Source: Candidatus Poribacteria bacterium (GTDB taxonomy: Bacteria > Poribacteria > WGA-4E > WGA-3G). Taken from it: DNA of 64,000 nt. Under the pieces are notes generated by a model. The model worked only from the letters and a program-made list of their open reading frames with translations, made no database searches and was not told the origin of the DNA. Below, piece after piece: positions 4,141 to 55,974 of this stretch. Where the stretch lies: NCBI GenBank assembly GCA_965242965.1, contig OZ251518.1:256001-320000 (forward strand). The letters are read 5' to 3'. The translations under genes were made by a program, and so were the position numbers. The first letter of the stretch is position 1, and every line of letters starts with the position of its first letter.

Positions 4141-4263
4141 TAGGGGCGGTTTCTTCTTAAATCCTAACGGACCTTGGAGCGAGTGATACGTATTTTTCTC
4201 TTTCCGGTAGGAGAGACCTCCCGGTCTCGATGCGGGTTATTCGTCGTCCTCGTCTTCGGGTTG

Positions 4264-5232: not shown

Positions 5233-5505
5233 TAGGTGTCATGTCCTCCTTTAGAAAGTATCGTAAAAGCGATTTGATAACCGCTAACCCTATTATAGCA
5301 TAAATCGCTTTTTTTTCGATAATTATTTTTTAGAAAATTGTCCCTTTCACCGTAGGGCGAGGGACAGGCCCTCGCCATGCTGCGGTGTCGCCAGAAAACG
5401 TCCCTTGCCGCTGGACTCAAGCGGTTCTAGTTCGATCGCGAAATCGCGAGGGACAGGCCCTCGCGCTACGGACAGGAGCAGGATCACGAGGGACAGGCCC
5501 TCGCG

Positions 5506-6465: not shown

Positions 6466-6490
6466 CAGTCATCATCCTCCCTATTTAATT

Positions 6491-7110: not shown

Positions 7111-7205
7111 GGGATTTATCCCATCTCCACAATTATAGCATTCGCGTCCATCTTGTATTTAATAGTATATCCGATTTTGCCACGTAGTGCAAGCGAATTT
7201 TGCTT

Positions 7206-8123: not shown

Positions 8124-8167
8124 AGATGTCTCCGCAATTCCTTGCTGGTAGGCGCGCTTTATCTGTC

Positions 8168-9549: not shown

Positions 9550-9564
9550 GGTTTCCCTCCCAGG

Positions 9565-10167: not shown

Positions 10168-10238
10168 TTTCGTTTCCCTCTTCAGAATGAGCGTTAATAA
10201 TAAGATACCATATTTTCCAATCAAAATCAACTTTAATT

Positions 10239-10765
10239 AGGGTGTTTCATAAATCCGTGTCGGAGAGCCCTCCTGGTTTCGATGCAAGCGATGTCCCTTT
10301 CATCGTAGGGCGAGGGCCCTCGCATGCCACACGCGCATGCGAGCGGGTTCCCCTCGTCATCGTTCATGTCCGCGCACCCCAACGCTCGCGGGGGACAGGC
10401 CCCCGCGCTACGATAAAAAACGGTTCTTAGGTCCGTAGGACCTTAATGTCTATAGCAGCCGAAACGCAAAAGGCTCTAAGGTCCTTTAGGTCCTTAATAG
10501 GTTTTGCCAGGGCCGCGCGTGGTTTTATTAAGGACCTAAAGGACCTTGAAAACGGTACGACACATGCTGCTATAGACATGTAGGTGCTAAAGCACCTAAA
10601 ACACCACTCTTGACGATGGAGATTGCGGGGGAAACCCGCTCGGATGCGCGTATGGCATCCGAGGGCCCCCGCGCTACGGGAACATCGAGACCAGGAGGTC
10701 TCTCCTACCGGAAATCACGCCCCGAGGTCTCTCCTGCCGAACACATCGAAATATGAAACACCCTC
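10239..10765. mobile_element. TIR-bounded composite REP element (MITE-like)
   Basis: AGGGTGTTTCATAA ... TATGAAACACCCTC with TTAA just outside each end; encloses GTAG hairpins and a nested AGGTCC/GGACCT element. Confidence 0.75.
10427..10599. repeat. ~175-bp palindromic AGGTCC/GGACCT element; inverted second copy at 50209-50384
   Basis: Terminal TTAGGTCC.TAGGACCTTAATGTCTATAG inverted repeats and shared interior GCCAGGGCCGCGCGT. Confidence 0.8.
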
Positions 10766-10824
10766 ACTTTAATAGCATTTACGCACTTTTTCCTATAGGC
10801 GTGGTTCATGAGAATAAAAAAAGA

Positions 10825-10853
10825 TTGACGCAAAAACGGCATTTTGGTAAAAT
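10825..10853 (+). promoter_or_regulatory. Sigma70-type promoter of the sod gene
   Basis: TTGACG-17 bp-TAAAAT. Confidence 0.6.
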
Positions 10854-10885
10854 AGGTATCACAACAAAATGACAAGGAGAATCTC

Positions 10886-11605
10886 ATGAATCGGAGAGAT
10901 TTCTTAATGAAAGGTGGCACAGCGGTGGCAGGACTGTTCCTCGCGAGTTCGCCGCTGAGTCTTTACGCGGCGCACCACGAAGTTGCCGAAGCATCCCATA
11001 AGCTGCCGGAACTGCCGTATGCGTATGACGCTTTAGAACCGCACATTGACACCCTCACGATGACAATTCATCACGGCAAGCACCACCAAGGTTACGTTAA
11101 CAAACTCAACGCCGCCCTCAAGGGGCACGATGAGCTTATGAAGATGTCGGTGGAAGCCCTGTTGCGCAACATCGATAAAGTGCCGATGGACATCCGTCAA
11201 GCCGTTATCAACAGTGGCGGTGGACACGCGAACCATACCCTCTTCTGGAACACGATGACTCCGAACGGTAGCAAACCGCTGGGGGAAGTTCTTGAGGCGA
11301 TTGAATCCGCGTTTGGCTCTTATCAGGCTGGTAGCGACATCTTTGACGAAGCCGCGCTGACGCATTTCGGTTCAGGATGGGCATGGCTCGTCGTTGACGA
11401 AGAAAAAAAGTTGCAAACCTACACCACGGTGAATCAGGATAGCCCCCTGATGAAGGGACATACCCCGATTCTCGGGCTTGATGTCTGGGAGCACGCCTAT
11501 TATCTGAAGTATCAGAATCGTCGCAAGGACTACTTGAAGGCGTGGGAAAACGTTATCGACTGGGAACAGGTGAACGCGCTTTATCTCGCGGCGATAAACC
11601 GGTAG
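10886..11605 (+). CDS. sodA: Fe/Mn superoxide dismutase (Mn-type signature) with Tat signal peptide
   Basis: MNRRDFL Tat motif; LPELPYAYDALEP, HHGKHH, GGGHANH, FGSGWAWL and DVWEHAYY. Confidence 0.92.
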   Translation: MNRRDFLMKGGTAVAGLFLASSPLSLYAAHHEVAEASHKLPELPYAYDALEPHIDTLTMTIHHGKHHQGYVNKLNAALKGHDELMKMSVEALLRNIDKVPMDIRQAVINSGGGHANHTLFWNTMTPNGSKPLGEVLEAIESAFGSYQAGSDIFDEAALTHFGSGWAWLVVDEEKKLQTYTTVNQDSPLMKGHTPILGLDVWEHAYYLKYQNRRKDYLKAWENVIDWEQVNALYLAAINR

Positions 11606-11639
11606 ACACGATTGCCGCATCGCGACACGAGGAACGACT

Positions 11640-12776
11640 ATGGAACGCAGAGATTTCCTGAAGCAGAGCGGCTTCACGCTCACCGCGCTGTTGCTGAGCC
11701 CGTGGAGCATCTACGCCTTTCCCAGCAGGGAAGGCGAGGTGCTTGTCCCGTTCGCAGCGCAGTCGCCAGAATCCGACAGCAACCGGGTGCTGCTGGACTG
11801 GAATCGCTTGGATACTTTCATCACGCCGAACGAGAAGTTTTTCAACGTTTCGCATTATGGGAAACCGGAGGTAGCCCTAGGTGCCTGGAGACTTGAGGTA
11901 AGCGGTTTGGTTGACAACCCGCTGATGCTCACGATAGCGGATATCAAAGCACGCCCGCGCCAAGAGGTAACGTTCACTTTGGAATGTTCTGGCAATCATG
12001 GGTTTCCTACGTTTACCGGGGCCATCGGGAATGCGAAGTGGGCTGGCACGCCGCTTGCGCCGATTTTGAAGGAGTCCGGTATCAAACAAAACGGCATTGA
12101 GGTGATTTTCTTCGGGCACGATACCGGTGAAGAGGAGCGGCGCGGTGTCAAGATGCGTCAGAACTTCGCGCGCAGCATGTCCCTCTCGGATGCGATGGCA
12201 GATACCGTTCTCCTCTGCTATGAGATGAACGGTGAGCCGCTGCCGCATGCGAACGGCGCGCCGCTGCGCCTGATTGCACCCGGTTGGTATGGCATCGCGT
12301 GCGTCAAATGGCTCAAACGGATTGAGGTGCGGGATACCCGTTTCATGGGCAGGTTCATGGCGCGCGATTATGTCACGATGCGCGAAGAGAAACGTCCTGA
12401 TGGCGAATCGGTTTGGATGGAAACCTCTGTCGGCCGCACGAAACTGAAATCGTTAGCAGCGAAGGTGACGCGCCTCGGCGATAAATACCGCATTTACGGT
12501 GCGGCTTGGGGCGCGCCGATTGATAGGGTCGAGGTGAGCCTTGACGGCGGCGCGTGGCAAAAGGCGACGCTTGACACGACTGAATCCGCCGAATTCGCGT
12601 GGAAAATCTGGCACCTCAATTGGGATAACCCGACGAAAGGCGAACACATCATCGTTTCAAGGGCAATTGATACAAGGGGCAACATCCAACCCGCTGGCGA
12701 TTCTGCCCATATCACGGGCAAACACACCTATTGGGAGAGCAACGGACAAATCGTCCGCCGGATTCACATTCCGTAG
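11640..12776 (+). CDS. Sulfite oxidase-family molybdoprotein (SoxC-like) with Tat signal
   Basis: MERRDFLK; TLECSGN (Mo-ligand Cys), MNGEPLP..NGAPLRLIAPGWYG..VKWL; C-terminal dimerisation domain. Confidence 0.88.
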   Translation: MERRDFLKQSGFTLTALLLSPWSIYAFPSREGEVLVPFAAQSPESDSNRVLLDWNRLDTFITPNEKFFNVSHYGKPEVALGAWRLEVSGLVDNPLMLTIADIKARPRQEVTFTLECSGNHGFPTFTGAIGNAKWAGTPLAPILKESGIKQNGIEVIFFGHDTGEEERRGVKMRQNFARSMSLSDAMADTVLLCYEMNGEPLPHANGAPLRLIAPGWYGIACVKWLKRIEVRDTRFMGRFMARDYVTMREEKRPDGESVWMETSVGRTKLKSLAAKVTRLGDKYRIYGAAWGAPIDRVEVSLDGGAWQKATLDTTESAEFAWKIWHLNWDNPTKGEHIIVSRAIDTRGNIQPAGDSAHITGKHTYWESNGQIVRRIHIP

Positions 12777-12836
12777 ATGCAATTGTAACGGCGGATGTCG
12801 TTCATGGACACCTGATAAATAGGAGACATTATCCTT

Positions 12837-13616
12837 ATGCACATCACCGATGAACAGAAACAGCAATTCCGAGAGGAAGGCTACTTTATCCTCGAAAACG
12901 TCATCCCGGAGCCGATGTTGGAACTCCTACGCGGCGAATGCGGGACGTTTATTAGTCAGATGGATGCCGAGATGGACAGGATGCAAACGGATGTCCTCGG
13001 CATTAACCATCGCGACAAGCGGTATTTTGTCTCAAATTGCTTCCGCAAGCAGCCGAGACTGCGCGAATTCCTCTTTAGCGAACTGATGGCGGAGCTCTGC
13101 CGTGCCACCCTCGGCGACACGGCGTATCTCTTCTGGGAGCAGTATGTCGTCAAAGGCGCGGAAGCAGGGATGAAGTTCAGCTGGCATCAGGACTCGGGAT
13201 ACGTCGGATACCCAGAACACAAGCCGTATCTCACCTGTTGGTGCGCCCTTGACGATATGTCCGAAGAGAACGGCACCGTCTATGTGATGCCGTTTTCGCA
13301 GATTGGCATCCGTTCGTGGGTGAAGCACATCCGCGAGGAGGGCAGCAACGACATGGTAGGCTATTTCGGACCGGAAAAAGGCGTGCCGGCTATCGTGCCT
13401 GCGGGGAGCATTGCGGTGTTTACCAGCATCAACTTCCACTGCAGCGGCACGAACCGCACTAAGAAGTTGCGCCGTGCGTATCTTGCGCAGTATTCGGCTG
13501 AGCCGCTCCTTTCGCACGATGGGACGCGTCTGTGGGGCAATGCGGAGCCGCTGTTGCGTGACGGAAAGTCGGCAGTGGGGGAACCGCCGCCGGAGATTGC
13601 GTCGCGGTTTGATTGA
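12837..13616 (+). CDS. Phytanoyl-CoA dioxygenase (PhyH) family protein
   Basis: QFREEGYFILE, WHQD, WCALDD..EENG and FHCSG.N. Confidence 0.88.
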   Translation: MHITDEQKQQFREEGYFILENVIPEPMLELLRGECGTFISQMDAEMDRMQTDVLGINHRDKRYFVSNCFRKQPRLREFLFSELMAELCRATLGDTAYLFWEQYVVKGAEAGMKFSWHQDSGYVGYPEHKPYLTCWCALDDMSEENGTVYVMPFSQIGIRSWVKHIREEGSNDMVGYFGPEKGVPAIVPAGSIAVFTSINFHCSGTNRTKKLRRAYLAQYSAEPLLSHDGTRLWGNAEPLLRDGKSAVGEPPPEIASRFD

Positions 13617-13705
13617 ATTCCTAGTTCGGCGCAAAGGCTGTCCCTGACATCGCGGAGGTGTAGGGGCACCTTTTGTGTCGTTCAACGCAGCATCGGAGGT
13701 CAAAC

Positions 13706-14410
13706 ATGGACAATTTTGAGAGACTGCTGAGTCTGGCGGAATTCGCTGCGAAAAGGCATGAGGAAAGAAGGCAAGTTGAGTTCAGAATCTTCATCACCTA
13801 CCTAACTTTTCTTGCTGTAATTTTCTATCATTTTACGAAAAAAGAGGGTTTAGTCCGAGACTTGATTACTTGGCTCGGTGTGCCTGTCTCAAGTTCTTCG
13901 GATCCAATCAATCCTTGGGTTCTAATTGTTGCCTTATCGCTTATCCACGTGGTTTACTTTTTCTGGCAGACGACTATTGGGATAGCGAATCAGAATGACA
14001 CACGCCGAAGAGATTTCTTTTTGGAGCGGGCGGAATGTATTTCTCAATATTTTATCAAGAACCCTCATAGTAAGACCTTTAGACCGAATGATCAGAAAAA
14101 GGTTCAAGTTGTGCGTGATGGTAAAATTGTTGAAAAATGTGAAATGGAATTTTTTGCGGAACAGCGTCCGCAGATAATTCTACCCCCGTACACAATAAGG
14201 AAAATGATAGAGTATTCTCACAAATTTTTGGAAGATTGGTTTCGCGGATCCCAATTTGCAATTCCAACTATTATGTTGGGGACACTTTTTTTCCTTAAAT
14301 TAGACTTCTGGTGGCAAGGTTTGCTAACCTTAGTCCTTCTTGCGATTTTATCATTGATTTTACCGTTTGTTTCACTTTGTTGGAGAAAAAGGAAACGCAA
14401 TGACAATTAA
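13706..14410 (+). CDS. Hypothetical multi-pass membrane protein (AT-rich)
   Basis: GGAGG RBS before ATG 13706; about four hydrophobic segments; visibly AT-richer than its neighbours. Confidence 0.65.
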   Translation: MDNFERLLSLAEFAAKRHEERRQVEFRIFITYLTFLAVIFYHFTKKEGLVRDLITWLGVPVSSSSDPINPWVLIVALSLIHVVYFFWQTTIGIANQNDTRRRDFFLERAECISQYFIKNPHSKTFRPNDQKKVQVVRDGKIVEKCEMEFFAEQRPQIILPPYTIRKMIEYSHKFLEDWFRGSQFAIPTIMLGTLFFLKLDFWWQGLLTLVLLAILSLILPFVSLCWRKRKRNDN

Positions 14411-14684
14411 GCAATTCCAAAAGCAGATCGAGGCAATCTATTACGAACGCGACGCTGAACGCGGTGTCCCCCTCACCTTCACGTGGTTCGTCGAAGAAGT
14501 CGGCGAACTCGCGAAGGAAATCCGCAAGCATCCGCACGACATAACACGACTCCGCGAAGAGTTCGCAGACGTGTTTGCATGGCTCGCCACGCTGGCTAGC
14601 CTGCTTGATATAGATTTGGCGGAGGCGGCGCAAATCTACGCAGATGGATGCCCGAAGTGCCAAGATACGCCGTGCTGTTGCTAA
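14400..14684 (+). CDS. MazG-like nucleotide pyrophosphohydrolase
   Basis: FQKQIEAIY, VEEVGELAKEI, EEFADVFAWL and C-terminal CPKC..PCCC. Confidence 0.85.
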   Translation: MTIKQFQKQIEAIYYERDAERGVPLTFTWFVEEVGELAKEIRKHPHDITRLREEFADVFAWLATLASLLDIDLAEAAQIYADGCPKCQDTPCCC

Positions 14685-14760
14685 TCCACGACAGTTGTCT
14701 AATTTGTCCAATGCCCGGTAGGCGCGCTTACAAAGCGCGCCTATCCGTTTCGCCTCCCAC

Positions 14761-16601
14761 CTATATCGTTTTGAGATGGCACTGCAACGCGAGGTTCGCC
14801 GCAAGCGTATCAGTCAACGCAATATCACGGCAGATGAAGATGGAATCTTTCGATAGCCGCAGGTGTTCTATGTCTGTCTCCGCGAGCTCTTTGTCTAAAC
14901 AGACATGGAAAGTTTGCGTTCCATCAGGCGCGCTAATTCGGAAGACGGTGTTCGTTTGTAACCCGGCGACTTCTTCCATCGTGCTGTCAAGTGGGTATCC
15001 CTCCTTGAGCGCGATTTCATAAAGGACATCCTCAACTATCCAACCGTTGCGAAGCGTATCAATGGTGTTCTCTAACTGCGCGATATACGTCTGTGCATCC
15101 TCGGCGGTAATCTCGGCTTCCGTGCGGTAGTTCGATTCGGCGAGTTCAAAGACACGGAAGCCTATGTCCCCGTTGAGGTTTTGACAGACGCGCCGAATCC
15201 GTTCCTTCCCAATCTCGGCGATAGTCTGAAAGCCTGCCTTGCGCGCCGCCGATTTCTCAGGTGTCCGTTCCGGCAGTTGCACCATGATAAACTGCCGCGT
15301 GCCCGAATCCTCCTGATTGAGTTCCAACACTGCCTGTGCTGTCGTGCAGGAACCGGCGAAGAAATCCAAAATGATTGAATCGCGGTGAGTGCTAAATTGG
15401 AGAAGGTGCTTGATTAAGCCCACCGGCTTGGGATTGGTAAAGATGCCATCTGCATCGAGAAGCTCCCGCAGCTGGGCCCTGCCGTGACTGTTTTTCTCAA
15501 CATCGGTTAACAGACCGCGCGGGACTCTCCCGCTTGATTCGTTCAGGTAACGCTTGTATTCCACGAGCCACTTCCCTTTTTGCGATTTTCTAAAGACGAT
15601 GCGATTTTCCTTTTTCATTTGCAGAAAACGCGACTCCAGCCGGTTCCACTCGTTGAAGACAAAAGAACCGTCGGGACATTCGATCTTGTATTGCAATCCT
15701 GGGGAGGGATGATCTGGTCTTCCGCGTGTGAAGGCATCGGTTTTATAGGGACCGCGGGTGGCATAATGCTCATCTTTTTGCGTGTAGGCGGCACTCTCCT
15801 TTTCAGTGAGCGGATACCGAAACCTTCCGGTTACAGCGCGGTCTTTTGCGTAAGCGAGGATGTATTCGTGGTTTATCGCGAAGTGTTTGGCATCGTTACT
15901 TCCGCTAGCGTATCGTTGCCACACCAATTGTTGCAGGCAGTTTTCCTCGCCGAAAATCTCGTTCATGAGAAGGCGGAGGTTGTAAACCTCGCGGTCATCG
16001 ATACTGACGAAGATGATGCCGTCATCGGTGAGGAGTTGTCGTGCGAGGAAGAGACGCGGATACATCATCGACAGCCATGCCGAGTGGTATCGGCCGCTCG
16101 TCTCTGGGTTGCTGGTTTGCAGATTGCCCTCGGTATCAAGTTGCCCGGATAGTTGCAGATAAGCCGCCAGCGGTTTCGCGTAGTTATCAGGATAGACGAA
16201 ATCGCTCCCGGTGTTGTAAGGCGGATCGATGTAGACGGCTTTGATCTTGCCGAAATAGGGTTTGTAGAGGAGTTTCAGCACCTCTAGGTTATCGCCTTCA
16301 ATGAAGAGGTTTGGGCTGCTGTCAAAATGCAGGGCAGCATCTCGGTGCGGCTTGAGGGTAGCCTCGGTAGGGACGCTAAGCAGGCGGATGGCATCGCGTT
16401 TGCCTGCCCAATTGAAACTATACCTATCCGATGTCTCTGCTTCAGTCTGTTTACCCCTTTTACCCCCCCTTCACAAATGTATATAATCTGCTGAAGTTTT
16501 TCCGCGTCAATGCTGCCTTCGGTGAGGCATTCAGGGAAGAGTTGCTTAAGTTGGCGGAGTCGTTCCGCGTTGGGGTTAGGGGTTGTTTTCGGGGTTTTCA
16601 T
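14761..16601 (-). pseudogene. mod: Type III Mod-type (beta-class) adenine DNA methyltransferase, frameshifted at a G7 tract
   Basis: The N-terminal LKQLFPECLTEGSID frame switches at the G7 (16463-16469) to RYSFNWAGK...FIEGDNLEVLKLL...YIDPPYNTG...NPKP...LDFFAGSCTT; no res gene adjacent. Confidence 0.85.
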
Positions 16602-16628
16602 TGGCGTTTTTCCTTGCGCTAGGCACGG

Positions 16629-16922
16629 CTATATCTCCGACAGTTCAGGGACGTGTGCGTCCTCATAATTTTCAATGAGCGTCCCAATGAAGTCCATCAA
16701 CGAGGCTAAGATGTGGTCTTCGTTTTCACCAACGGTATCAATTAAACCGTCGAGGATTGCCACGAGTTGTTGATAGTCATTTTCTGTCAATGAGGCGAAA
16801 AGATGGGGTTCGCTCGTGCCAACGGCATCAATTAGATGTTCTAACGCTGGCACAAGTGGTAGAGAATTCCCAATGGGTTCTGCCTGCAACGGACTAGATA
16901 GCGGGGTGTGTCTGGGCATCAT
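16629..16922 (-). CDS. Small protein resembling the N-terminal half of HigA-type antitoxins (no HTH)
   Basis: ENDYQQLV..LDGLIDTVGENEDH.L.SLMDFIGTLIENYED; AAGGAG RBS. Confidence 0.55.
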   Translation of the reverse strand: MMPRHTPLSSPLQAEPIGNSLPLVPALEHLIDAVGTSEPHLFASLTENDYQQLVAILDGLIDTVGENEDHILASLMDFIGTLIENYEDAHVPELSEI

Positions 16923-16942
16923 ATTACTCCTTCAACTTAAGT

Positions 16943-17415
16943 GAGGGTGTTTCATATTTCAATTTCTTCCCGGTAGGAGAGACCTCCCGGTCTCGATTTT
17001 CCTGTAGCGCGGGGGCCTGTCCCCTGCGAGTTCCATCGTCACGATCCGTGTTTCCCTTCTGTAGTTTGTGATCGCCTGATCACAAACGGTTCAGGATCAG
17101 GCGATCCTGACCTACAGAGCCTGGCGCGCGAGCGATGGCGAGGGACAGGCCCTCGCCCTACGGTGAAGTGCCGTTTTTTCCCGTAGCGCGGGGCCCGTCC
17201 CTTGCGAGCTCCATCGTTCCGATGTGTGTTTCCGCCTCTGTAGTTTGTGATCGCCTGATCACAAACGGTTCAGGATCAGGCGATCCTGACCTACAGAGCC
17301 TGGCGCGCGAGTGATGCAGAAATCAAGACCAGGAGGGCTCTCCTACAGGGACATCGCTTGCATCGAGACCGGGAGGTCTCTCCTACCGGGATGCAGCGAT
17401 TTATGAAACTCCCTC
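16943..17415. mobile_element. TIR-bounded composite REP element with an internal tandem duplication
   Basis: TTAA-GT-GAGGGTGTTTCATA ... TATGAAACTCCCTC-TC-TTAA; two ~180-bp internal units. Confidence 0.78.
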
Positions 17416-17417
17416 TC

Positions 17418-18686
17418 TTAATTTGCATCCAAAAACCGCTCAAAATTCCCGCCGAACAGATTGCCGACATCCCGAACGATTTCCGAACGCGTCACACACC
17501 AACCCGCATCCAATAATGTCTGATACTTCTCCGCCAAAACATCGGCGATGATCTGGCGCGAATGTTTCCATTTGTATACCAGCTGATCCAAGATGCGCGC
17601 ATCCGAATGTTGCGGGATAACGCTCAACCCCAGCAACTCAAGCCGCTCACGCGTAATCTCCTCAATAATGCTCGGATTGTTCATGAACCACCAACACCCG
17701 AAAATCATCAGGTTTTTGAACTTCCTGCCGATGACGCATAACTCATGCTGGTTCTCGCGCGACAGAAGCGTTACCAAAAACTTATTGTCGGGATGTTCAC
17801 GGAGCAACGCCTCTAAACTACCCAGGTCTGCCTTCGCGCTGCCATCGCCAGCCATCTGGAGTTGCGGATTCACGGCGCGTTTGACACCAATCATCAGCGC
17901 GAACGGAACGTTGAATTCACGCGAGACCGGCAGGATACAGTTATCGAACACTCTACCGAGGATGCCGTCATCAGGATACCGAAAATCCGGGGGGAGCGAG
18001 ACTGCCATGTATTTTGGTTGCATCCGTTGAATCCACGTCTCCAAGAATCGGCGCACCTCTTTCTGTGCCTTTTCAGATGAGAGCGTTGCATCCACCTCAT
18101 AACCAAGTCCGCGGAGGTGTTCATAAGCGGTTTCTTGGTAAGTGTTGATCAGCACGTCCAGCCGCAGCGCGGCGTGAAACCGCGAATCGCCGGTATTCGC
18201 AGATTCCCACACTGGGGATTCTGCTGCATCAAAAGGGTCATTCGTCATAACGACTTGTGAGACATTGGCGCGGGCAAACACCGTGTCAATGAACGCCTCG
18301 ACGGAGGTATCCGCAAAGTAGTTACGGTAGTCCTGCAGGTTGCGCGCGGTGACATCCAACCCCAATTCGTTTAACGTCGTGACGACACCGCGGCATGCCT
18401 CGCTCAACGGCGAGTTTTCAATGAAGAGTTTCTGCCAGATGAGCTCCGCCTGTTCCGCCTTCGTCATCGCCCAAAACTGCTGATAGGTGACATCCGATTT
18501 GCGGAATACCTCGGCGATGAGGTAGTGATACGTCAGCAATTCGTCAATGCCCCACAGCAACAATTCCCCGAAGGGTGGACTGAACAGATGCGTGTGGATG
18601 TCGGTGACGCTTTGCGCGTGGACCTCTGTCGTAACAGCGGTTTTCAGTTCAGCCGCGTTCGCGATGGGCTGCGTGCCGTTGTTCAT
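17418..18686 (-). CDS. uxaC: Glucuronate (uronate) isomerase, Bacillus halodurans Bh0493-type
   Basis: DIHTHLF, LWGIDELLTYHYL, MTNDPF, MIGVKR, FGCWWF and QHSDARILDQL. Confidence 0.85.
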   Translation of the reverse strand: MNNGTQPIANAAELKTAVTTEVHAQSVTDIHTHLFSPPFGELLLWGIDELLTYHYLIAEVFRKSDVTYQQFWAMTKAEQAELIWQKLFIENSPLSEACRGVVTTLNELGLDVTARNLQDYRNYFADTSVEAFIDTVFARANVSQVVMTNDPFDAAESPVWESANTGDSRFHAALRLDVLINTYQETAYEHLRGLGYEVDATLSSEKAQKEVRRFLETWIQRMQPKYMAVSLPPDFRYPDDGILGRVFDNCILPVSREFNVPFALMIGVKRAVNPQLQMAGDGSAKADLGSLEALLREHPDNKFLVTLLSRENQHELCVIGRKFKNLMIFGCWWFMNNPSIIEEITRERLELLGLSVIPQHSDARILDQLVYKWKHSRQIIADVLAEKYQTLLDAGWCVTRSEIVRDVGNLFGGNFERFLDAN

Positions 18687-18689
18687 TCT

Positions 18690-19094
18690 TCATTCTCCCG
18701 GAGGCGCGCTTTCCAAACGCGCCCGAATAAAATCAACTATCGATTCCGATGGCTGTGTGCCAAATCGGACGTAAACGCCCCGGAAATTCTCCAGCCGCGT
18801 CGGTTTCGCAAAGGGACTGAGCAGTATCCCGTTCGCATCAACATAAGAACTCCGGAACGTAGCCCAGGGCCGTTCCAACCGATAGCAACATGCCGTGACG
18901 ATAAGCCTATCCGTCTCGCACTGGTAGCGGAACGGCAAAAAGTATTTGTAAAGCGAACCGATTAGGAACAGTGCCGATAGCACCACGACCGGGGCAGACC
19001 GGAACCCCCAATAGATGCAGAGGAAAAGGAAACACAGAAAAATCCCCAGTAGCGCGCTCCGTTTCCAATTTTCACGAGCGGATGCACTGTCCAT
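18690..19094 (-). CDS. Hypothetical membrane protein
   Basis: Two N-terminal TM helices, then YFLP..Y and GILLSPF..PTRLENFRG; operonic with secG. Confidence 0.7.
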   Translation of the reverse strand: MDSASARENWKRSALLGIFLCFLFLCIYWGFRSAPVVVLSALFLIGSLYKYFLPFRYQCETDRLIVTACCYRLERPWATFRSSYVDANGILLSPFAKPTRLENFRGVYVRFGTQPSESIVDFIRARLESAPPGE

Positions 19095-19138
19095 GAGATT
19101 TGTTCGTCGGTTTGGTGCTGCGTTTCCATTTTTCTCGC

Positions 19139-19558
19139 CTACTCAGTCTCCTCTGGCGTAACTCCATCGACTTCGGTTTTCGAGGATTGTCCTCCTTCGG
19201 CGGGTGTCTCACTTTCGGTGCTGTCCGCCTCGTCTCCGCCGACGGTGTCAACGGGTTCCGGTGTCTCACCCTGTTGCGTCTGTTCTTGCTCAATCGGGGT
19301 GAGGGCACCGCCGCTCTCCTCGCCGTAGAACCGCATTAAGATGAGCGAGATAACCATGAAGCCGACGGCCAACCACGTCGTCATTTTGCCGAGGAAAGTC
19401 GCGGCACCGCGACTGCCCAACATTGACTGCATCTCCGCGCCGCCAAACGCGCTTGATGACAGCCCTTCGCCTTTGCTGTCTTGTAAGAGGATGATCAGCG
19501 TCAAAATGACGCAGACCGGAACGAAAAGCACTACTGCAAATCCAATGATAATTCCCAT
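19139..19558 (-). CDS. secG: Preprotein translocase subunit SecG
   Basis: IILLQDSKGEGLS.AFGG, GSRGAATFL.KMT.WL; acidic C-tail; follows tpiA. Confidence 0.9.
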   Translation of the reverse strand: MGIIIGFAVVLFVPVCVILTLIILLQDSKGEGLSSSAFGGAEMQSMLGSRGAATFLGKMTTWLAVGFMVISLILMRFYGEESGGALTPIEQEQTQQGETPEPVDTVGGDEADSTESETPAEGGQSSKTEVDGVTPEETE

Positions 19559-19749
19559 GAGATATTCCTTTTAAATCTTAGCCAGTCTGCAGTTTGAGTC
19601 TCCCTGAGCTCAAATTGCCCGGGCTCAGGCGAGCCCGAACTACGGAATAGATTGCACTGACTCAGGCGAGCCCGAACTACAGAATAGATTGCACTGGTAG
19701 GCGCGCTTTGCAAGCACGCCTAGGGTTCATGTTGTTCACGTCTAACTTC

Positions 19750-19963
19750 AGGGTGTTTCATAACTCCGTTAGTGCTTAAAGCCCTGTAGGTCAGGATCGC
19801 CTGATCCTGACCCGTTCGGGAGCGGGCGCTCCCGAACTACAGAGGTGGGCCCGATGCACCTTACGGGCACATCGAGACCAGGAGGTCTCTCCTACGCTCC
19901 CGAACTACAGAGGTGGCCCCGATGCGCTCTCCCCCAAGGAGGATAAATTTATGAAACACCCTC
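19750..19963. mobile_element. TIR-bounded composite REP element
   Basis: AGGGTGTTTCATAA ... TTATGAAACACCCTC enclosing GTAG hairpins. Confidence 0.75.
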
Positions 19964-20018
19964 AGTTTATTGCATCGAGACTGGGAGGGCTCTCCTACCG
20001 GGAAGAAAAACTCCCTCT

Positions 20019-28531: not shown

Positions 28532-30697
28532 ATGTCTCAAGAAGCTTATAGCAAGCTTTCCCCTAATCTTGGAAATCTTGGAAATCCTGCTCTAAAACGC
28601 ACCCACTATTGTGGTGCACTCCGCTTAACCGATGCCGGTGCAAGCGCGCAACTCAACGGCTGGGTGCAACGCCGCCGCGACCACGGTGGTGTCATCTTCG
28701 TTGATTTACGCGACAGAACCGGCATCACCCAAGTCGTCTTCGACCCGCAGATTGACGCGGCGGCGCACGAACGCGCGAGTGCTGTCCGCAGCGAATTTGT
28801 GCTAAACGTCAGCGGCACCGTCCGCGAACGCGAGCCCGGCGAACACCTCTTTCAATTAGAAGAGGCGAGGTATGAGTCAACGAGTCTTCTGACCTGGTCC
28901 GTCCGCTCTTCCGATGGGGAAGTGTTTTTCCACTCGGACACAAGGGAAGCAGAGGATGTGACACTGTCCTCGGCATTCCGTGCCAGATTCGCCGAGGTGG
29001 ACAAGAAATACACCCTCTCCGATGAACTGAAGTTCGCGGTGCGAGAGCCCGGCACGCGGTGGCTGCTCACCGATGTGGAAAATAACCGCACCTATGAAAT
29101 CCATCTCGCAGAAGCGCGGGAGAAAGGACGCGTCTTAAACGTCTACCAAGGCACCGTTAATCCGGAACTTGCCACAGGCGAGATAGAGCTCGCCGTGGAT
29201 TCCCTGAACATTTTGAACACGGCGAAAACGCCGCCGTTCCCCGTGGAAGACGATGTCGAGGTAGCGGAAGACATTCGGATGCAGTATCGGTTCATCGATT
29301 TGCGCCGGCCGACGATGCAGCAGACGCTCGCGATGCGCCACAAAGCCGCACTCGCCGCGCGCAACTATATGAACGAGAACGGCTTCTTGGAAATCGAGAC
29401 ACCCATCTTGATGAACAGCACGCCGGAGGGCGCGCGCGATGTCCTCGTGCCGAGTCGGCACTACCCCGGCAGATTCTACGCGCTCCCGCAGTCACCGCAG
29501 CAGTTCAAACAGATTCTGATGATGTCCGGCGTAGATAGGTATTTTCAAATCGCACGCTGTTTCCGCGATGAAGATACCCGGGCAGACCGGCAGTTGGAAT
29601 TCACGCAGCTTGACATTGAGATGTCCTTCGCCGGTGTCGATGATGTGCTGGAAGTCACAGAAGGGTTGATGAAGCGGATATTTGAGGAGGCAGGTGGCAT
29701 TCCTGTTGAAACGCCGTTTCAGCGGTTGTCTTACCATGAATCGATGGCGCGTTTCGGCAATGACAAGCCGGATACGCGGTTTGGCATGGAGCTGACCGAC
29801 CTCGGGGACATCATGGCTTCCTCCGATTTTCAGGTGTTCACGCGCGCGCTAGAAAGCGGCGGACAGGTGAAAGCCATCGCTGTCCCAGGCGGTGCAGACT
29901 TTTCGCGGAAGGACATCGATGATCTGACGAAGTTTGTCGGTATCTACCGTGCAAAAGGACTCGCATGGGTGAAAATCAATCCTGAAAATTCTGCAGATTC
30001 TGCTCAATTTTCATCTGGCATCGTCAAGTTCTTCAAACCGGGACAGTTGGAGACAGCGCAGGAGCGGACAGGCGCGCAACCGGGTGACATCATGTTCTTC
30101 GTCGCAGACCGGGCGAATGTTGTCGCCGATGCCCTTGGCAACCTTCGAACGCATCTCGCACGCAAGCTGAACCTGATTGACGAGAACCGCCACAACTTCC
30201 TCTGGATTGTTGACTATCCGCTTTTTGAGTGGAACGCCGAACAGCATCGGTATGAGCCGTTCCATCATCTTTTCACCGGCGCGACAGATGAGACAGTCGG
30301 TTTACTTGACACCGACCCGAGGAAAGTGCAGAGTCAACACTATGATCTGGTTTGCAACGGCTATGAAATCTGTAGCGGTAGCGTCAGAATCCACGAGTGG
30401 GATGTCCAACAGAAAGTTTTTGACGTTCTGCAGATTAGTCCGGAGGATGTCAAAAGTCGGTTCGGGTATTTCATCGATGCGTTGGCATACGGCACGCCGC
30501 CGCACGCGGGCATCGCTCCCGGCTTGGACCGGATTGTGATGCTGATGCGCAACGAGGATAACATCCGGGAAGTCATTGCGTTTCCGAAATCACAGCAGGG
30601 GCTTTGCCCTTTGACGCAAGCACCCTCTGTCGTGACAGAGGAACAGTTGGCAGAATTGTCTATCCGTGTGGATGCTCCGTTAGGCGCGGATGCCTAA
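28532..30697 (+). CDS. aspS: Aspartate--tRNA ligase carrying a ~103-aa insertion in its anticodon-binding domain
   Basis: RTHYCG, RRRDHGGVIFVDLRD (HGG suggests the non-discriminating type), TPEGARD, LPQSPQ, YFQIARCFRDED, GTPPHAGIAPGLDR and FPK. Confidence 0.96.
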   Translation: MSQEAYSKLSPNLGNLGNPALKRTHYCGALRLTDAGASAQLNGWVQRRRDHGGVIFVDLRDRTGITQVVFDPQIDAAAHERASAVRSEFVLNVSGTVREREPGEHLFQLEEARYESTSLLTWSVRSSDGEVFFHSDTREAEDVTLSSAFRARFAEVDKKYTLSDELKFAVREPGTRWLLTDVENNRTYEIHLAEAREKGRVLNVYQGTVNPELATGEIELAVDSLNILNTAKTPPFPVEDDVEVAEDIRMQYRFIDLRRPTMQQTLAMRHKAALAARNYMNENGFLEIETPILMNSTPEGARDVLVPSRHYPGRFYALPQSPQQFKQILMMSGVDRYFQIARCFRDEDTRADRQLEFTQLDIEMSFAGVDDVLEVTEGLMKRIFEEAGGIPVETPFQRLSYHESMARFGNDKPDTRFGMELTDLGDIMASSDFQVFTRALESGGQVKAIAVPGGADFSRKDIDDLTKFVGIYRAKGLAWVKINPENSADSAQFSSGIVKFFKPGQLETAQERTGAQPGDIMFFVADRANVVADALGNLRTHLARKLNLIDENRHNFLWIVDYPLFEWNAEQHRYEPFHHLFTGATDETVGLLDTDPRKVQSQHYDLVCNGYEICSGSVRIHEWDVQQKVFDVLQISPEDVKSRFGYFIDALAYGTPPHAGIAPGLDRIVMLMRNEDNIREVIAFPKSQQGLCPLTQAPSVVTEEQLAELSIRVDAPLGADA

Positions 30698-51745: not shown

Positions 51746-53053
51746 GGGGGTTAGCAATGCCGCCGCAATCGCCGCGAACATTTCCTCCACTTCGGTTACC
51801 TCAATGCACGAATACGCAATCCGCAACTCTGATTCACCGAGTGCGATGGTGCCGATGCCGTGCTCGGTGAGGAGGCGTTGACGGACAGTTTCGGCGTTCC
51901 CTTTTTTCAGGCGCAGGCACGTGAAATAACCGGCGTGACTCGGATAGACCTGCCATAATTCGGCATATCGCGCATCGGAGGCAACCTGTTTGACTTTCAT
52001 CGCGCGTGCCTTGAGGGTTTCAAAGTTGCGCCGCTTTTGTTCGGCGTAATCTGGCGCGTTCATCGCTGCAAGAATAAGTGTCTGCGCGATTTGTGCTGCG
52101 CCGGAAGTATTCGCCCGGATAAGCCCGCTGATTTTTTGTTCAAGCGGTTGCATTACGGCATCGTCCAGCGCGAACGTGAGAAACCCGATGCGCATGCCCC
52201 AGGCGTATTCCTCTTTCGTCGCGCCATCTATTTTCACGGGGACGACGTTCGGATGGCATCCTGCCAACATGCCGAAAAGTGATTCGTGCATCACGTCATC
52301 GTCATACCAGAAGCCCGCGTAGGCATCGTCAAGCATGACGAGGAGGTGGTTATCGGCATCTGCACATTCTGCACATTCGACAATTGCGTTGACAATTTCC
52401 TGCGCTTCGGCGCGCGTGATGGCGTAACCGGTGGGGTTATGCGGAAAATTGAGAAGGACGAGCGTCTTTCCAGCCGAATGTGCGCGCGTTGTGAGCGCGC
52501 CAACCTTGATAAGTGTCTCGCGGAAACCGTCGGTGTTAAAACGGTATTCGGCATCGTAGAAGGGATAAGTCATAACCTGCGCCTGCGCTTTGGTTTCAAA
52601 GATGAGCCGATAGTTGCCCCAGATTTTGTCGGGCAGCACTAGCGTATCACCACTATTGACGAAGAGCTCGGCGAGGAGACTGAGTCCGTGCGTCATGCCG
52701 TTCGTCACGATGGGTGAACTGAACGTCGCTTGGGCAAGCGATGGGTTTGTTTCGCGGAGGTGTGTCTTCCATTTCTGACGTAGTGCGGGTTGTCCAAGCA
52801 CGGGCGCGTAGCCGTAGACATTTTCCAGCGATGGGTTCGGCACGAGGGTGCGTGAGACAGGGAGGTGCATCATTTCTCCGTTTTCTAGTGCGATGGCGCG
52901 CGTTGCATTAAACCGATGCGCTTGCGCGTTCGCCTCGGCTGTCTGGCTTAAGATGCCTTTCGGCAGGTAGATGCGTTTCCCTAATTCGGAGAGGAGCGCG
53001 AAAAGTGCGGGTGATGCCGCGCGGATGTGTTCGTTTAATTCGGTTGCTGGCAT
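51737..53053 (-). CDS. PLP-dependent aminotransferase class I/II
   Basis: PKGILSQTAEA, LNFPHNPTGY, LDDAY and KIDGATKEEYAWGMRIG (PLP lysine). Confidence 0.88.
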   Translation of the reverse strand: MPATELNEHIRAASPALFALLSELGKRIYLPKGILSQTAEANAQAHRFNATRAIALENGEMMHLPVSRTLVPNPSLENVYGYAPVLGQPALRQKWKTHLRETNPSLAQATFSSPIVTNGMTHGLSLLAELFVNSGDTLVLPDKIWGNYRLIFETKAQAQVMTYPFYDAEYRFNTDGFRETLIKVGALTTRAHSAGKTLVLLNFPHNPTGYAITRAEAQEIVNAIVECAECADADNHLLVMLDDAYAGFWYDDDVMHESLFGMLAGCHPNVVPVKIDGATKEEYAWGMRIGFLTFALDDAVMQPLEQKISGLIRANTSGAAQIAQTLILAAMNAPDYAEQKRRNFETLKARAMKVKQVASDARYAELWQVYPSHAGYFTCLRLKKGNAETVRQRLLTEHGIGTIALGESELRIAYSCIEVTEVEEMFAAIAAALLTPGP

Positions 53054-53150
53054 AGTTTTTTCTAACAGAGGAAAATAGTTGTTGAAATTGTGCCGCATAA
53101 TCAATTTAATGTCAACCAATTTCGCCAAAATACGTCTTAAAATATAAATA

Positions 53151-53429
53151 AGGGTGTTTCATAACTCCGTTTCGGTAACTATCCCCCCTTGGGAGGCGCG
53201 CATCGGGCCCATCTCTGTAGTTCGGGATCGCCTGATCCCGAACGGGTCAAGAGCAGGCGATCTTGACCTACAGGGGTGACGCGGTCTGCCAGCAAAACGA
53301 TGGCGAGGGAAACCCGCTCGCATGCGCGTGTGGCATGCGAGGGCCCTCGCCCTACGTAAAGGGGAGTCGTTTTTTTCACCGAGCGCGTGACCTGTCACCG
53401 CAACGTTGAGCGATTTATGAAACACCCTG
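53151..53429. mobile_element. TIR-bounded composite REP element flanked by a direct repeat (candidate TSD)
   Basis: AAAATATAAATA (53139-53150) | AGGGTGTTTCATAA ... TTATGAAACACCCTG | AAAATATAAATA (53430-53441). Confidence 0.8.
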
Positions 53430-53466
53430 AAAATATAAATAGACTACAAAAAGGACTCACATCAAA

Positions 53467-54597
53467 ATGAAAGCACTCCTCAAAAGCCTTGCAGTGGCGA
53501 TACTCTTTATCCTCGCGGTGGGCGCGATTCTCGGTGCCTATATCCTTCAGGCACCGCCGGTTGCGCGACCCGGGCCGCCGAAATTACAAATCCATACGCG
53601 GACTGCGTTACGCGGCAGACCGGATGTGAATTCCAAACCGCTCGCCTACACGAAAGATGTCTACCGACACAGTTTGGCACCGGATTACATCAGCAACTTG
53701 AACAGCGGGGAATTCTCGCCGAAACTGCTGTTCAGCGCGGATTTGGCGCGGCGCGCGCCGTTGGAAGCCGAACGGTTGGACGCAGAATTGCGAGACGGCA
53801 TTGATTGGGAGAAAATGTTCGCCGATTTGACAGAGAACGTTAGGTTCAATGCCCGTTCGTCTGATTTAAAGGTGTTGCTCAGCGGGAAAGAGTGGCATCT
53901 CTTCGATGGGGCTGGCGCGAGGTATAAGGTGGCCCGGGTCCAAAATCGGTTGCATATCTCTCTGCCGGACTTAAGAGAGGCGTTTGAGATTAATAAGGTG
54001 CAGCTCTCCGACAAAACCGAGGCATCTGTTGAAAAGCCGGGGAGACAGTGGATTATCCGCGACATCGGCTATCAGCAGGCGTATACCGTAAAACTTGGCG
54101 GGCAAAAAGGTGAGAAGAAACTGAATGTCTTCCAGCAATCGAAAGTCGAGATTCTCCACTCGCTGTTTGATGCGGATGTGACATCGCAGCCCGCGTTGAC
54201 ATCTGGGCTTCTGAAAGCATCTTCGCAACACTACATTTCGGCAGAACTCCGCGCCGAGTTTGTGGAACAGAACATCGCGCTGACGCGGAAGGCGAAACTA
54301 TCGGTAATTGAAGAAGATAGAGAGTGGCTGATAACCGATGCCGGCCAGAAGTATCGTATCCGTTTGGAAGACGCACCGCAAGATGGCGGAAAAACCTCAA
54401 GGTTGAAGGTATACCTTGACGTGGATAGCGAATGGCTTCGCGTGCGGGTTGATGATAACCTGAAAGGCTGGGTGCAACGGCGGCGCGGGACGGTATTCCA
54501 ACCGCCGCCACCGCAGTTGAGCTCACGTCAACAAGCAAAAGCACGACTTCTGGTGCTGATTGACGACTTAAAATTGAAAATAGGAATAGGAGAATAA
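53467..54597 (+). CDS. Membrane-anchored SH3b-domain protein interrupted by three copies of an unannotated domain
   Basis: N-terminal TM; TALRGRPDVNSKPL ... SKVEIL ... DSEWLRVRVDDNLKGWV SH3b pieces separated by W.[IL].D...Y...L.V[YF] repeats. Confidence 0.7.
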   Translation: MKALLKSLAVAILFILAVGAILGAYILQAPPVARPGPPKLQIHTRTALRGRPDVNSKPLAYTKDVYRHSLAPDYISNLNSGEFSPKLLFSADLARRAPLEAERLDAELRDGIDWEKMFADLTENVRFNARSSDLKVLLSGKEWHLFDGAGARYKVARVQNRLHISLPDLREAFEINKVQLSDKTEASVEKPGRQWIIRDIGYQQAYTVKLGGQKGEKKLNVFQQSKVEILHSLFDADVTSQPALTSGLLKASSQHYISAELRAEFVEQNIALTRKAKLSVIEEDREWLITDAGQKYRIRLEDAPQDGGKTSRLKVYLDVDSEWLRVRVDDNLKGWVQRRRGTVFQPPPPQLSSRQQAKARLLVLIDDLKLKIGIGE

Positions 54598-54642
54598 GCC
54601 ACGCCGATAGGGGCGCGTTAGCCGCTTAATGTCTATAAGACG

Positions 54643-55974
54643 ATGAAAATCCTTTTCCTCTCTCCCACTGTGCCGTTTCCGCTGACTGATGGTGGACGGA
54701 TTCGGGTGTTTAATCTCCTCAAACAGGTTTCCCAGAAATGCGAAGTAACTCTATTGGCATTGGAGACATTGCCTACCGATGCGGAGAGCATCGCGCATCT
54801 GGAACGCTTCGGGATTCAGGTGCATCTCGTCCGACACGGCGGAGAACTTCCACCGGTATCGCTTGGCACAATTCTGAGTGCGTTTCTCAGGCGAGTGCCT
54901 ATCACCGTCGCGCGCTATAACGTGCCTGCCTATCGACAGAAATTTAAAGAATTGGTGGCAACTGAAACCTTCGATCTGGTGCATTATGAAATGTTCCACG
55001 TCGCCCAATTCCACACTGAAACAGATTTGCCAAGCCTTCTTTCACAGCAGAACGTCGATTCTGCCATCTGGCGGCGGCTCTGTCAGGAGACAGCGAATCC
55101 TCTCCGGAAATGCCTGTATTGGACGCAGCAACGCGCTTTTGAACGTTATGAGCGGTTGATTAACCCAAAATTTGACATCGTCACCTGCGCTTCCGAGATA
55201 GACAAGCAGGCATTTCAACGGACAAGCGCGGAAAGCCGTTTTGAGATTATCCCTAATGGGGTGGATATTGAGGACTATCAACCGGATTCCACCCCCGTAG
55301 GCGAGACCTCCCGGTCTCTACTCCCCGTAGGAGAGACCTCTGGTCTCGATGCAATAGAACAAACCTCCGGTCTCAATGCAATAGACGAAACCTCCCGGTC
55401 TCAACACCCCGTAGGAGAGACCTCCCGGTCTCGATTTGACGCGCAAGAACCCCATCTCATCTACATCGGCAGCATGGATTGGTATCCCAACGAAGACGCG
55501 GTAACCTTTTTCGCCGACGAAGTCTTGCCGCGAATCCACGAGAAACTCCCGAACGTTCAATTTTCCGCCGTTGGCGGTAATCCATCGCCGCGCGTGCAAA
55601 AATTAGCGGAGAACCCACAGATTCAGGTTACTGGGCGCGTGCCGGAAATCAAACCGTATTTTGCACGGGCGACTGTGTTTGTCGTGCCGTTGCGCATCGG
55701 GAGCGGCACGCGATTGAAAATTCTTGAGGCATTGGCGATGGGCAAGGCTGTCGTTTCAACCACCGTCGGCGCGGAAGGGTTAGACCTGGGTATCGGGGAG
55801 GAAATTCTCATCGCCGATGAACCGAAAGCGTTTGCAGAAGCGGTGCTTCGTTTGCTCACCGATGTATCTCTGCGTCGCAGACTCGGTGAAAAGGGCCGCG
55901 CGCGCGTGGAACGAGATTACGATTGGCGCAGCATCGGAGAAAAACTGCTTAGGCTTTATGAGTCGCTTTGTTGA
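54643..55974 (+). CDS. Glycosyltransferase family 4 with an in-frame REP-derived insertion
   Basis: MKILFLSP.VPFP...GG.IR, IPNGVD, GSMDWYPN and PLRIGSGTRLKILEALAMG. Confidence 0.9.
   Translation: MKILFLSPTVPFPLTDGGRIRVFNLLKQVSQKCEVTLLALETLPTDAESIAHLERFGIQVHLVRHGGELPPVSLGTILSAFLRRVPITVARYNVPAYRQKFKELVATETFDLVHYEMFHVAQFHTETDLPSLLSQQNVDSAIWRRLCQETANPLRKCLYWTQQRAFERYERLINPKFDIVTCASEIDKQAFQRTSAESRFEIIPNGVDIEDYQPDSTPVGETSRSLLPVGETSGLDAIEQTSGLNAIDETSRSQHPVGETSRSRFDAQEPHLIYIGSMDWYPNEDAVTFFADEVLPRIHEKLPNVQFSAVGGNPSPRVQKLAENPQIQVTGRVPEIKPYFARATVFVVPLRIGSGTRLKILEALAMGKAVVSTTVGAEGLDLGIGEEILIADEPKAFAEAVLRLLTDVSLRRRLGEKGRARVERDYDWRSIGEKLLRLYESLC

Follow-up and report, generated by a model that had tools for sequence, protein, structure and literature searches.

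A poribacterial SH3b-like protein probably interrupted by three copies, one of them nested, of an uncatalogued inserted domain

Introduction

Can a small bacterial SH3 (SH3b) domain be broken at two places by copies of another domain, and one of these copies by yet another, and if so, how did the copies get there? The question is raised by a gene at 53467..54597 of a 64,000-nucleotide stretch of DNA from a Candidatus Poribacteria bacterium, a sponge symbiont (assembly GCA_965242965.1, contig OZ251518.1, positions 256,001 to 320,000), which is called the window below and from whose first letter coordinates are counted. The genome that holds it (G000) comprises 5.70 Mb in two contigs. Families within the Poribacteria phylum are labelled f1 to f8 here, and G000 belongs to f1. 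A sequence-only reading of the window had proposed that one SH3b domain is divided into three pieces by two insertions, that a third copy of the inserted domain lies within the first insert, and that such independent and nested insertions, rather than tandem duplication, are the signature of an element that inserts repeatedly with frame and host fold kept. We propose that the SH3 domain of this protein is probably interrupted at two loops by three copies (A, B and C) of an autonomous inserted domain, with B lying in the alpha1/alpha2 region of A.

One SH3b-like domain in three pieces

The evidence that the three pieces (a, b and c; Table 1) belong together comes from a homologue with no insert. 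This protein of 136 amino acids (aa) is encoded in genome G053 (family f4; L068:1950..2360 (-)), and its gene was located in a search of 61 genomes of the phylum through an outside match to aa 315-370 of the SH3b protein alone, in a short frame. It has a transmembrane (TM) helix, then an uninterrupted SH3 region, then a helix at the C-terminus. We joined aa 1-64, 223-230 and 317-376 from 21 non-redundant orthologues of the SH3b protein into one hidden Markov model (HMM) profile and compared it with the insert-free homologue. The profile matched in a single run of 65.9 bits over HMM positions 11-124 of 132, with one-residue gaps at both junctions. Pieces a and c, whose separate scores are given in Table 1, reached 61.0 bits together, and a+b+c reached 66.1 bits. 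When the 136-aa protein was used as the query, its match in G000 was the open reading frame (ORF) of the SH3b protein (E 1.5e-5), and in six f1 genomes its two halves, N- and C-terminal, each gave a match of its own, both in the same ORF. The homology thus supports the view that the three pieces form one SH3b-like domain. The unbroken run along the insert-free homologue bears out the proposal of a single domain interrupted twice, and the segment boundaries of the sequence-only reading hold as well.

The domain type is indicated by the SH3_3 family (PF08239). On the SH3b protein itself the match in piece c covers profile positions 24-49 of 54 (E 0.0079); a match at E ≤ 1 was present in 55 of 63 orthologues, the best with E 0.0016, and the motif W..V....GWV is kept in the SH3 pieces. 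An SH3_3 search of the whole of G000 gave nothing at E ≤ 0.01, and an NCBIfam scan of the SH3b protein gave no match. Fifteen relatives of the 136-aa protein, 88-146 aa long, were found in a large protein database, 13 of them with a precomputed SH3_3 annotation; in the nine that we scanned, the match extended from profile position 5 to 51-53 of 54 at 23.0-30.2 bits, and four of the nine reached the cut-off. SH3_3 is also uninterrupted in the other SH3 proteins of the phylum. In the insert-free protein the Pfam match has no gaps; counting along it puts the insertions near profile positions 21 and 29 of SH3_3, with the strand KVEIL/KLEI between them.

Three copies of one module, one inside another

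The inserted segments are copies of a module of about 70 aa (about 210 bp), arranged as beta1-alpha1-alpha2-beta2-5. By blastp, A and C were 35% identical over 43 aa (E 6e-7) and B and C 28% over 68 aa (E 3e-6); A compared with B alone was not significant. We also scored the modules of the 21 orthologues with an independent HMM of 53 rows, none of which came from the SH3b protein. The medians were 57.3 bits for the C-terminal part of A (A2), 22.9 bits for B and 64.3 bits for C; A, B and C are homologous members of one family.

The nesting of B in A was examined by rejoining the two parts of A (A1 and A2) by script. The rejoined module scored a median of 70.8 bits over HMM positions 1-71. A2 alone gave 57.3 bits (positions 20-71), shuffled A1 joined to A2 gave 57.4 and SH3 piece a joined to A2 gave 56.9. 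The protein of the window itself behaved alike, with 56.7 bits for A1+A2, 49.7 for A2, 48.6 for shuffled A1 with A2 and 48.7 for SH3 piece a with A2. Because rejoined A1+A2 outscores A2 alone and both controls, the comparison supports an interruption of module A after about position 19 by a complete module B; the third copy claimed within the first insert is thus borne out.

Alternatively, nothing may have been inserted, and the layout may be the product of internal tandem duplication or rearrangement of a repetitive protein, or the 136-aa proteins may be secondary deletion products. Tandem duplication of the module within a protein does occur elsewhere, at up to 97% identity, and no intermediate with one or two modules was found. 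However, the order A1-B-A2 cannot arise by tandem duplication of modules, the rejoined host follows an uninterrupted SH3_3 protein colinearly, with gaps of a single residue at the junctions, and SH3_3 is contiguous in the other SH3 proteins of the phylum. In addition, A, B and C resemble one another (28-35% identity) no more than C resembles modules of other proteins (24-34%). We consider this alternative very improbable, and the colinearity sustains the earlier preference for insertion over tandem duplication.

Table 1. Layout of the SH3b gene and position of the module in the AspRS gene, in coordinates of the window
Feature	Coordinates	Strand	Evidence
Whole gene; 376-aa membrane-anchored SH3b-like protein with three inserted modules (predicted)	53467..54597	+	ORF list; orthologues 347-376 aa; full-length match in 36/36 family-f1 genomes
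N-terminal hydrophobic helix, aa 1-30, likely membrane anchor	53467..53556	+	Sequence; AlphaFold2 (AF2) helix 2-27, pLDDT 73-82; aligns with TM region of insert-free homologue
SH3 piece a, aa 41-64, QIHTRTALRGRPDVNSKPLAYTKD	53587..53658	+	Piece-a profile 21.9 bits on insert-free homologue; mean pairwise identity 0.80, 21 orthologues
Module A, N-terminal part (A1), aa 65-86, strand beta1 and helix alpha1	53659..53724	+	About 13.5 bits (median) gained and HMM match reaching position 1 when rejoined to A2; shuffled control +0
Module B, aa 87-165, complete copy nested in module A	53725..53961	+	HMM positions 1-71, median 22.9 bits (independent model); blastp vs C E 3e-6
Module A, C-terminal part (A2), aa 166-222, alpha2 and four strands	53962..54132	+	HMM positions 20-71, median 57.3 bits
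SH3 piece b, aa 223-230, QQSKVEIL, one SH3 beta strand	54133..54156	+	Aligns to TKLEI of insert-free homologue, about 5 bits gained; orthologue identity 0.82
Module C, aa 231-316, complete copy	54157..54414	+	HMM median 64.3 bits; AF2 pLDDT 81.6, order beta-alpha-alpha-beta4
SH3 piece c, aa 317-340, LDVDSEWLRVRVDDNLKGWVQRRR	54415..54486	+	SH3_3 profile 24-49 at aa 312-337, 16.8 bits; c with C-terminal tail (aa 317-376) 39.5 bits on insert-free homologue
C-terminal Pro-rich linker and helix, common to insert-free homologue	54487..54594	+	Profile alignment; AF2 helix 353-372
Module in OB fold of AspRS	28844..29146	+	Gene about 28532..30694; HMM match

Relatives with none, three and four modules

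In the search of 61 phylum genomes, a full-length orthologue with three modules (41-59% identity) was present in all 36 sampled genomes of f1 and in none of the 24 genomes outside f1. At 29 orthologous loci, a glycosyltransferase gene flanked the SH3b gene in 25 and an aminotransferase gene in 22. Among protein-database homologues we considered the best 120 of 270 matches, which are 347-376 aa long. There were also 15 shorter matches, and the 12 that we inspected were fragments or frameshifted pieces with the three-module layout, none of them a module-free form.

A four-module homologue, P0143, extends the nesting by one level. It has 452 aa, is encoded on a 7.03-Mb Poribacteria chromosome and belongs to a cluster of 12 members of 433-452 aa. 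Its layout reads host a, A1, B1, D, B2, A2, host b (KRSKMEIVP), C and host c, where D (aa 114-184) is a complete, near-consensus module of 90.1 bits inside B. Rejoined, the host pieces of P0143 matched a profile of 11 insert-free proteins in one run of 70.4 bits, and A1 added about 7 bits. D occupies the same place in B as B does in A, and because of this shared position the alpha1/alpha2 region of the module appears to be a repeated acceptor site. Self-nesting of the module would thereby reach three levels (SH3 > A > B > D). Module C of P0143 (L143) carries a tandem expansion of three EKPDSTV/I units at aa 350-375, in the loop ahead of the W-containing strand.

Several observations weigh against the explanation proposed here for the SH3b protein. 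The SH3b protein stays under the gathering score of SH3_3 (16.8 bits against a cut-off of 27). The insert-free homologue is about 31% identical over the shared parts and has a different gene neighbourhood, and because of this its orthology to the SH3b protein is likely rather than proven. A local SH3 HMM of 20 SH3_3 segments from the phylum gave median scores of 10.2 bits for a+b+c and 11.3 bits for c alone, that is, no gain from a and b; we judged this model too narrow and used the comparison with the insert-free homologue in its place. The AF2 model of the full-length protein (63-row alignment) had a mean predicted local distance difference test (pLDDT) score of 52.4 and did not reproduce an SH3 barrel, with residues 33-109, 223-230 and 320-348 below 50. 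The AlphaFold check that had been suggested for the full protein thus returned the N-terminal helix (Table 1) and did not confirm the fold of the SH3 pieces; a Foldseek search with the model gave no match at E ≤ 0.001. In P0143, including the B1 part (14 aa) brings no measurable gain (35.8 vs 35.4 bits), and B1 was assigned by eye, from its likeness to B of the three-module homologue P0174. Lastly, orthologues with 0, 1 or 2 inserts had been proposed as a check. Forms with 0, 3 and 4 modules were found; no form with one or two was seen among the homologues examined. With these points taken into account, we think it probable that the gene product is a small envelope protein with an N-terminal membrane anchor, one SH3_3-like bacterial SH3 domain and a C-terminal helix.

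A module family spread through the phylum

The module is defined by the motif LLFxxD..LD.G.IS..LR..F...I.LS....V.....G..W.I.D....Y.I.K....LnVY, and W, D, Y, L and F positions are invariant or nearly so over 55 diverse copies. An AF2 model of module C from a 55-row alignment (Table 1) gave the order strand, helix, helix and four strands, with a strand at 4-7 at its start and one at 78-85 at its end. A Foldseek search of the module model against the PDB gave no match at E ≤ 0.001 (best E 0.18), and the ESM Atlas gave low recognition of module C and no usable lead. Pfam and NCBIfam scans of the full SH3b protein gave no match to a module, and no Pfam family matched more than two of 55 module sequences. 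The module family is absent from Pfam and NCBIfam. A match to the beta-barrel family MOSC_N of Pfam at aa 740-772 of the metagenome protein P0136, on the W..I.D....Y hairpin of one module (27.2 bits, cut-off 25), was absent from the scan of 55 modules; it is probably a local similarity and was rejected.

A profile of the modules of the 21 orthologues found eight further open frames in G000, with E from 6e-15 to 2e-4 while none of them was yet part of the profile. Iterated, the search converged on 12 domains in 9 proteins, and a later, broader profile found 11 proteins. With the profile of the 12 modules of this genome, a library of 1.84 billion proteins gave 1885 representatives with E ≤ 1e-3, a number that dropped to 437 with a threshold of 1e-10 and to 29 with one of 1e-30; the representatives are 113-5820 aa long. 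Among the listed representatives that were scanned, 148 of 149 carry the module, in one to six copies each. In the phylum, 58 of the 61 genomes contain 9-25 module matches each, and the three genomes of families f5 and f6 contain none.

By Pfam, the hosts in G000 include VWA, DUF4861, sigma-54, Wzy_C, YibE/F, histidine kinase and aspartyl-tRNA synthetase (AspRS) proteins. Further hosts are pentapeptide-repeat proteins (4 of 10 scanned) and an FGE-sulfatase protein whose domain spans the module. Judged from these sequences, the Poribacteria module behaves as a generalist insert, which occurs in loops of unrelated cytoplasmic and envelope proteins, in tandem arrays and in a near-standalone protein. 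Four pentapeptide-repeat proteins from metagenomes (P0136-P0138 and P0152) have C-terminal arrays of 3-5 near-consensus modules. Module identity within a protein reaches 97% among the representatives, and in the pentapeptide-repeat arrays this value suggests recent tandem amplification.

Insertions in AspRS and sigma-54

In AspRS the module sits in the oligonucleotide/oligosaccharide-binding (OB) fold, between VRER.EG(D/E) and (L/Q)GT.NP, and the Pfam tRNA_anti-codon match stops ahead of it at profile position 63 of 75. The enzyme carries the module in f1, in f2 and in genus g6 of f3 ('VRERLEGD[LLF..VY]LGTINPNL'), and is cleanly without it in genus g8 of f3 and in f4-f8, where VRERGE is directly followed by GLTNPNL. 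In the sigma-54 protein of G000 the module occupies 177-249, and the match to the core-binding domain resumes at profile position 48. The module region of sigma-54 can be aligned among f1, f2 and the two f3 genera. The frames of f4, f5 and f6 are shorter (501-533 aa against 569-653 aa), and what aligns in them is only the part that follows the module. The SH3b protein has modules in f1 and none in f4. Because the phylogenetic spread differs among the three hosts, several gains or losses at different times are required. The clean presence and absence in AspRS, together with the differing spread in sigma-54, supports repeated in-frame insertion into unrelated genes, as the sequence-only reading had supposed.

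Two details of the AspRS locus deserve mention. In G000 alone, the AspRS module has about 22 extra residues in its alpha1 region (28868-28942, within RYESTSLLTWSVRSSDGEVFFHSDT), at the same spot as the module-in-module nesting, and this stretch could be what is left of one more nested copy. The f3 genera g6 and g8 (L129-L134 and L106) differ in the AspRS module yet both have the module in sigma-54; the AspRS flanks of g6 look nearer to those of family f2 than to those of g8. The difference between the two genera hints at loss or gene replacement.

Mobile DNA or inherited inserts

How could the copies have reached these sites? We suggest that a contiguous SH3 domain was ancestral and that it received, in frame, DNA for a domain that folds by itself and holds its two ends close to each other through its first and last strands. 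Only insertions that were in frame and located in loops would have survived. After fixation, folding of the host would need a folded insert, and because of this the modules could be under purifying selection without any shared function.

A different proposal is that the module was carried as coding sequence by a dedicated selfish DNA element that is now rare or extinct and that transposed in frame into genes, the protein family being its fossil record. At its widest this would be a Poribacteria-wide 'domain transposon', a segment of about 210 bp copying in frame into coding loops, including its own alpha1/alpha2 loop, with adjacent ends that make the insertion harmless. In-frame copies in loops of unrelated cytoplasmic and envelope proteins, which speak against one shared function, would fit such an element, as would nesting of the module in itself to depth 3 and clean presence or absence at one AspRS site inside the single family f3. 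Furthermore, among the representatives, 138 of 272 module pairs with at least 55% identity sit in proteins without other detectable homology, at up to 73% identity. G000 also tolerates in-frame palindromic repeats in genes, three units of which lie in the neighbouring glycosyltransferase gene, and Rickettsia palindromic elements (RPEs) are a precedent (PMC10969869).

However, the traces expected of such an element were not seen at the DNA level. There was no nucleotide similarity between copies, and the longest direct repeat within the SH3b gene was 17 nt. The DNA of module D of P0143, the most consensus-like copy, found only itself in its own genome. No hairpin excess was detected, the mean folding z being -0.18 for 10 module segments vs -0.50 for 9 flanking host segments against codon-shuffled controls. 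In G000, all 11 open frames with the module are at least 319 aa long, and no copy lay outside long ORFs when frames down to 30 aa were searched. The copies number 9-25 per genome, no more. Inspection of the AspRS junction revealed no evident terminal repeats or target duplications. Nor was there polymorphism in close relatives, in which contigs from two of four metagenome runs span the whole SH3b ORF without an indel or joint. The earlier notion of 'an element' as a mobile DNA unit is therefore not borne out, and we regard the selfish element, including the 'domain transposon', as unlikely. If true, it would be an analogue of RPEs at the level of protein domains, able to remodel even AspRS and sigma-54.

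Within the explanation that we prefer, namely an SH3b domain interrupted by an autonomous domain that was inserted in frame, the inserts of the SH3b protein are ancient, fixed in f1 and conserved. Copying has continued in some lineages, because high-identity pairs occur in non-homologous hosts and pairs of 97% identity occur within proteins. The copying agent is no longer detectable in G000.

The chromosome of G000 (contig C1) holds a different kind of repeat. It has 1310 palindromic units of the form GAGACC-N(3-5)-GGTCTC, 390 of them in open frames of at least 200 aa. Three GAGACC-N(3-4)-GGTCTC units at 55290-55435, within the glycosyltransferase gene 54643..55974, are read in frame as PVGETSRS-like repeats. 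The GAGACC...GGTCTC units are an RPE-like situation at the DNA level; RPEs are, as their name says, palindromic, and they lie also between genes. Low-complexity stretches directly adjoin the module in the Wzy-type protein (L005, aa ~165-200) and the YibE/F protein (L006, aa ~555-595), with sequences such as GHRDREGSPTE... and ARGPVPTTPD.... They look like the same palindromic DNA repeat in other frames; the strict palindrome pattern has one unit in the Wzy gene and none in the YibE/F gene.

A function common to the hosts

We also considered that the hosts may share a function for which the module was taken up, for example partner binding, self-association or targeting to a Poribacteria-specific structure, and that positive selection keeps the module there, insertion being only the route of fusion. 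The near-invariant positions in 55 diverse copies, the retention of the module in all sampled f1 genomes and the tandem arrays of 3-5 copies in pentapeptide-repeat proteins, with identity up to 97%, are consistent with this. So is the location of the insertion sites in the SH3 domain, which flank the strand between two loops that, from general knowledge of SH3 domains, we take to be those lining the binding face. Against it, the membrane separates AspRS and sigma-54 from other hosts (the anchored SH3b protein, a Wzy-type ligase and the ectodomain of a sensor kinase), so that a single partner is unlikely. In sister lineages AspRS and the SH3b protein work without the module, and searches for family and fold gave no functional lead. 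The modules also evolve faster than the SH3 pieces: among the 21 orthologues, mean pairwise identity was 0.50-0.66 in modules, 0.69-0.82 in SH3 pieces and 0.62 in the TM helix. We hold a shared function to be quite unlikely as the cause of the distribution.

Comparison with known systems

Domain insertion, including recursive nesting, is common, being reported for 20% of multidomain proteins in a 2026 survey, which also describes generalist insert families, close insert termini and six-level nesting in cyanobacterial RNA polymerase (PMC13114784). As in the nested insertions described there (A1-B1-C-B2-A2), a contiguous, compact insert breaks the host sequence and may itself host an insert (PMC13114784). 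This arrangement, a contiguous insert in a discontinuous host, repeated recursively, is found in the SH3b protein and in P0143. The predicted strand at each end of the Poribacteria module would fit the close-termini rule of that survey. Unlike the cases set out there, the Poribacteria case uses the same family of about 70 aa at every level (PMC13114784). It further differs in that the SH3 host, of about 55 residues, is smaller than its inserts, and in that the module, which has no Pfam, NCBIfam or PDB fold match, is spread over many unrelated hosts in one phylum. With respect to SH3_3 (PF08239), the host pieces are colinear with the 136-aa proteins that match this family, whereas the domain is discontinuous in the SH3b protein.

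RPEs are DNA repeats of about 150 bp that are recognisable at the nucleotide level and behave as in-frame miniature inverted-repeat transposable elements in coding genes (PMC10969869). The likeness is that one short coding segment stands in frame in many unrelated, often essential genes and is compatible with the host fold (PMC10969869). In contrast, the Poribacteria modules are about 210 bp long, are alike at the protein level only (about 30% identity), encode a complete alpha/beta fold, are not palindromic and never lie outside long ORFs in G000. In other words, in-frame presence in unrelated genes is shared with RPEs, and nucleotide similarity, palindromes or hairpins and intergenic copies are not.

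The ShiLan domain, which is described as an in-frame homing insert (PMC11855218), likewise stands in a host gene without internal stop codons, as do inteins and Hint-type inserts. Unlike inteins, the Poribacteria module has about 70 aa and appears to be conserved as part of the mature sequence. It starts with LLF and ends with LxVY, and the residue that follows varies (Q or L). Inteins and Hint domains were rejected as candidates: Pfam gave no Hint or endonuclease match, and the junctions have no conserved nucleophile or His-Asn, neither Cys/Ser at the N-terminal end nor His-Asn followed by Cys/Ser/Thr at the C-terminal one.

In the literature searched, supplements being outside the search, we found no paper that links Poribacteria with such an inserted domain. 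Nested domain insertion and RPE-like in-frame spread are already known, and the Poribacteria case combines both without the DNA hallmarks of RPEs. What is new here is a family, not catalogued before, that serves as the insert at each level, breaks up a host of smaller size than the insert and extends to essential proteins of the cytoplasm as well as the envelope in one phylum.

Surroundings of the gene

An Rfam scan of 53000-54700 gave nothing credible. The intergenic region 53140-53440, upstream of the SH3b gene, contains a cluster of short hairpin repeats. Contigs from four metagenome runs pile up on it, with a summed depth of 1e4-1e6 vs about 50-20,000 over the SH3b gene. Because of this pile-up, it is a highly repeated element in the sampled communities.

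Implications

The analysis defines a domain family that is missing in current libraries. It raises the question of whether ordinary recombination was enough for the spread of this family or whether a dedicated element was needed. For protein evolution and design, the hosts offer tolerated insertion sites together with matched insert-free controls from sister lineages. Members of one small domain family sit in loops of numerous unrelated proteins in the Poribacteria, including sigma-54, the OB fold by which the essential AspRS binds the anticodon and an SH3 domain with about 55 residues, and also inside one another.

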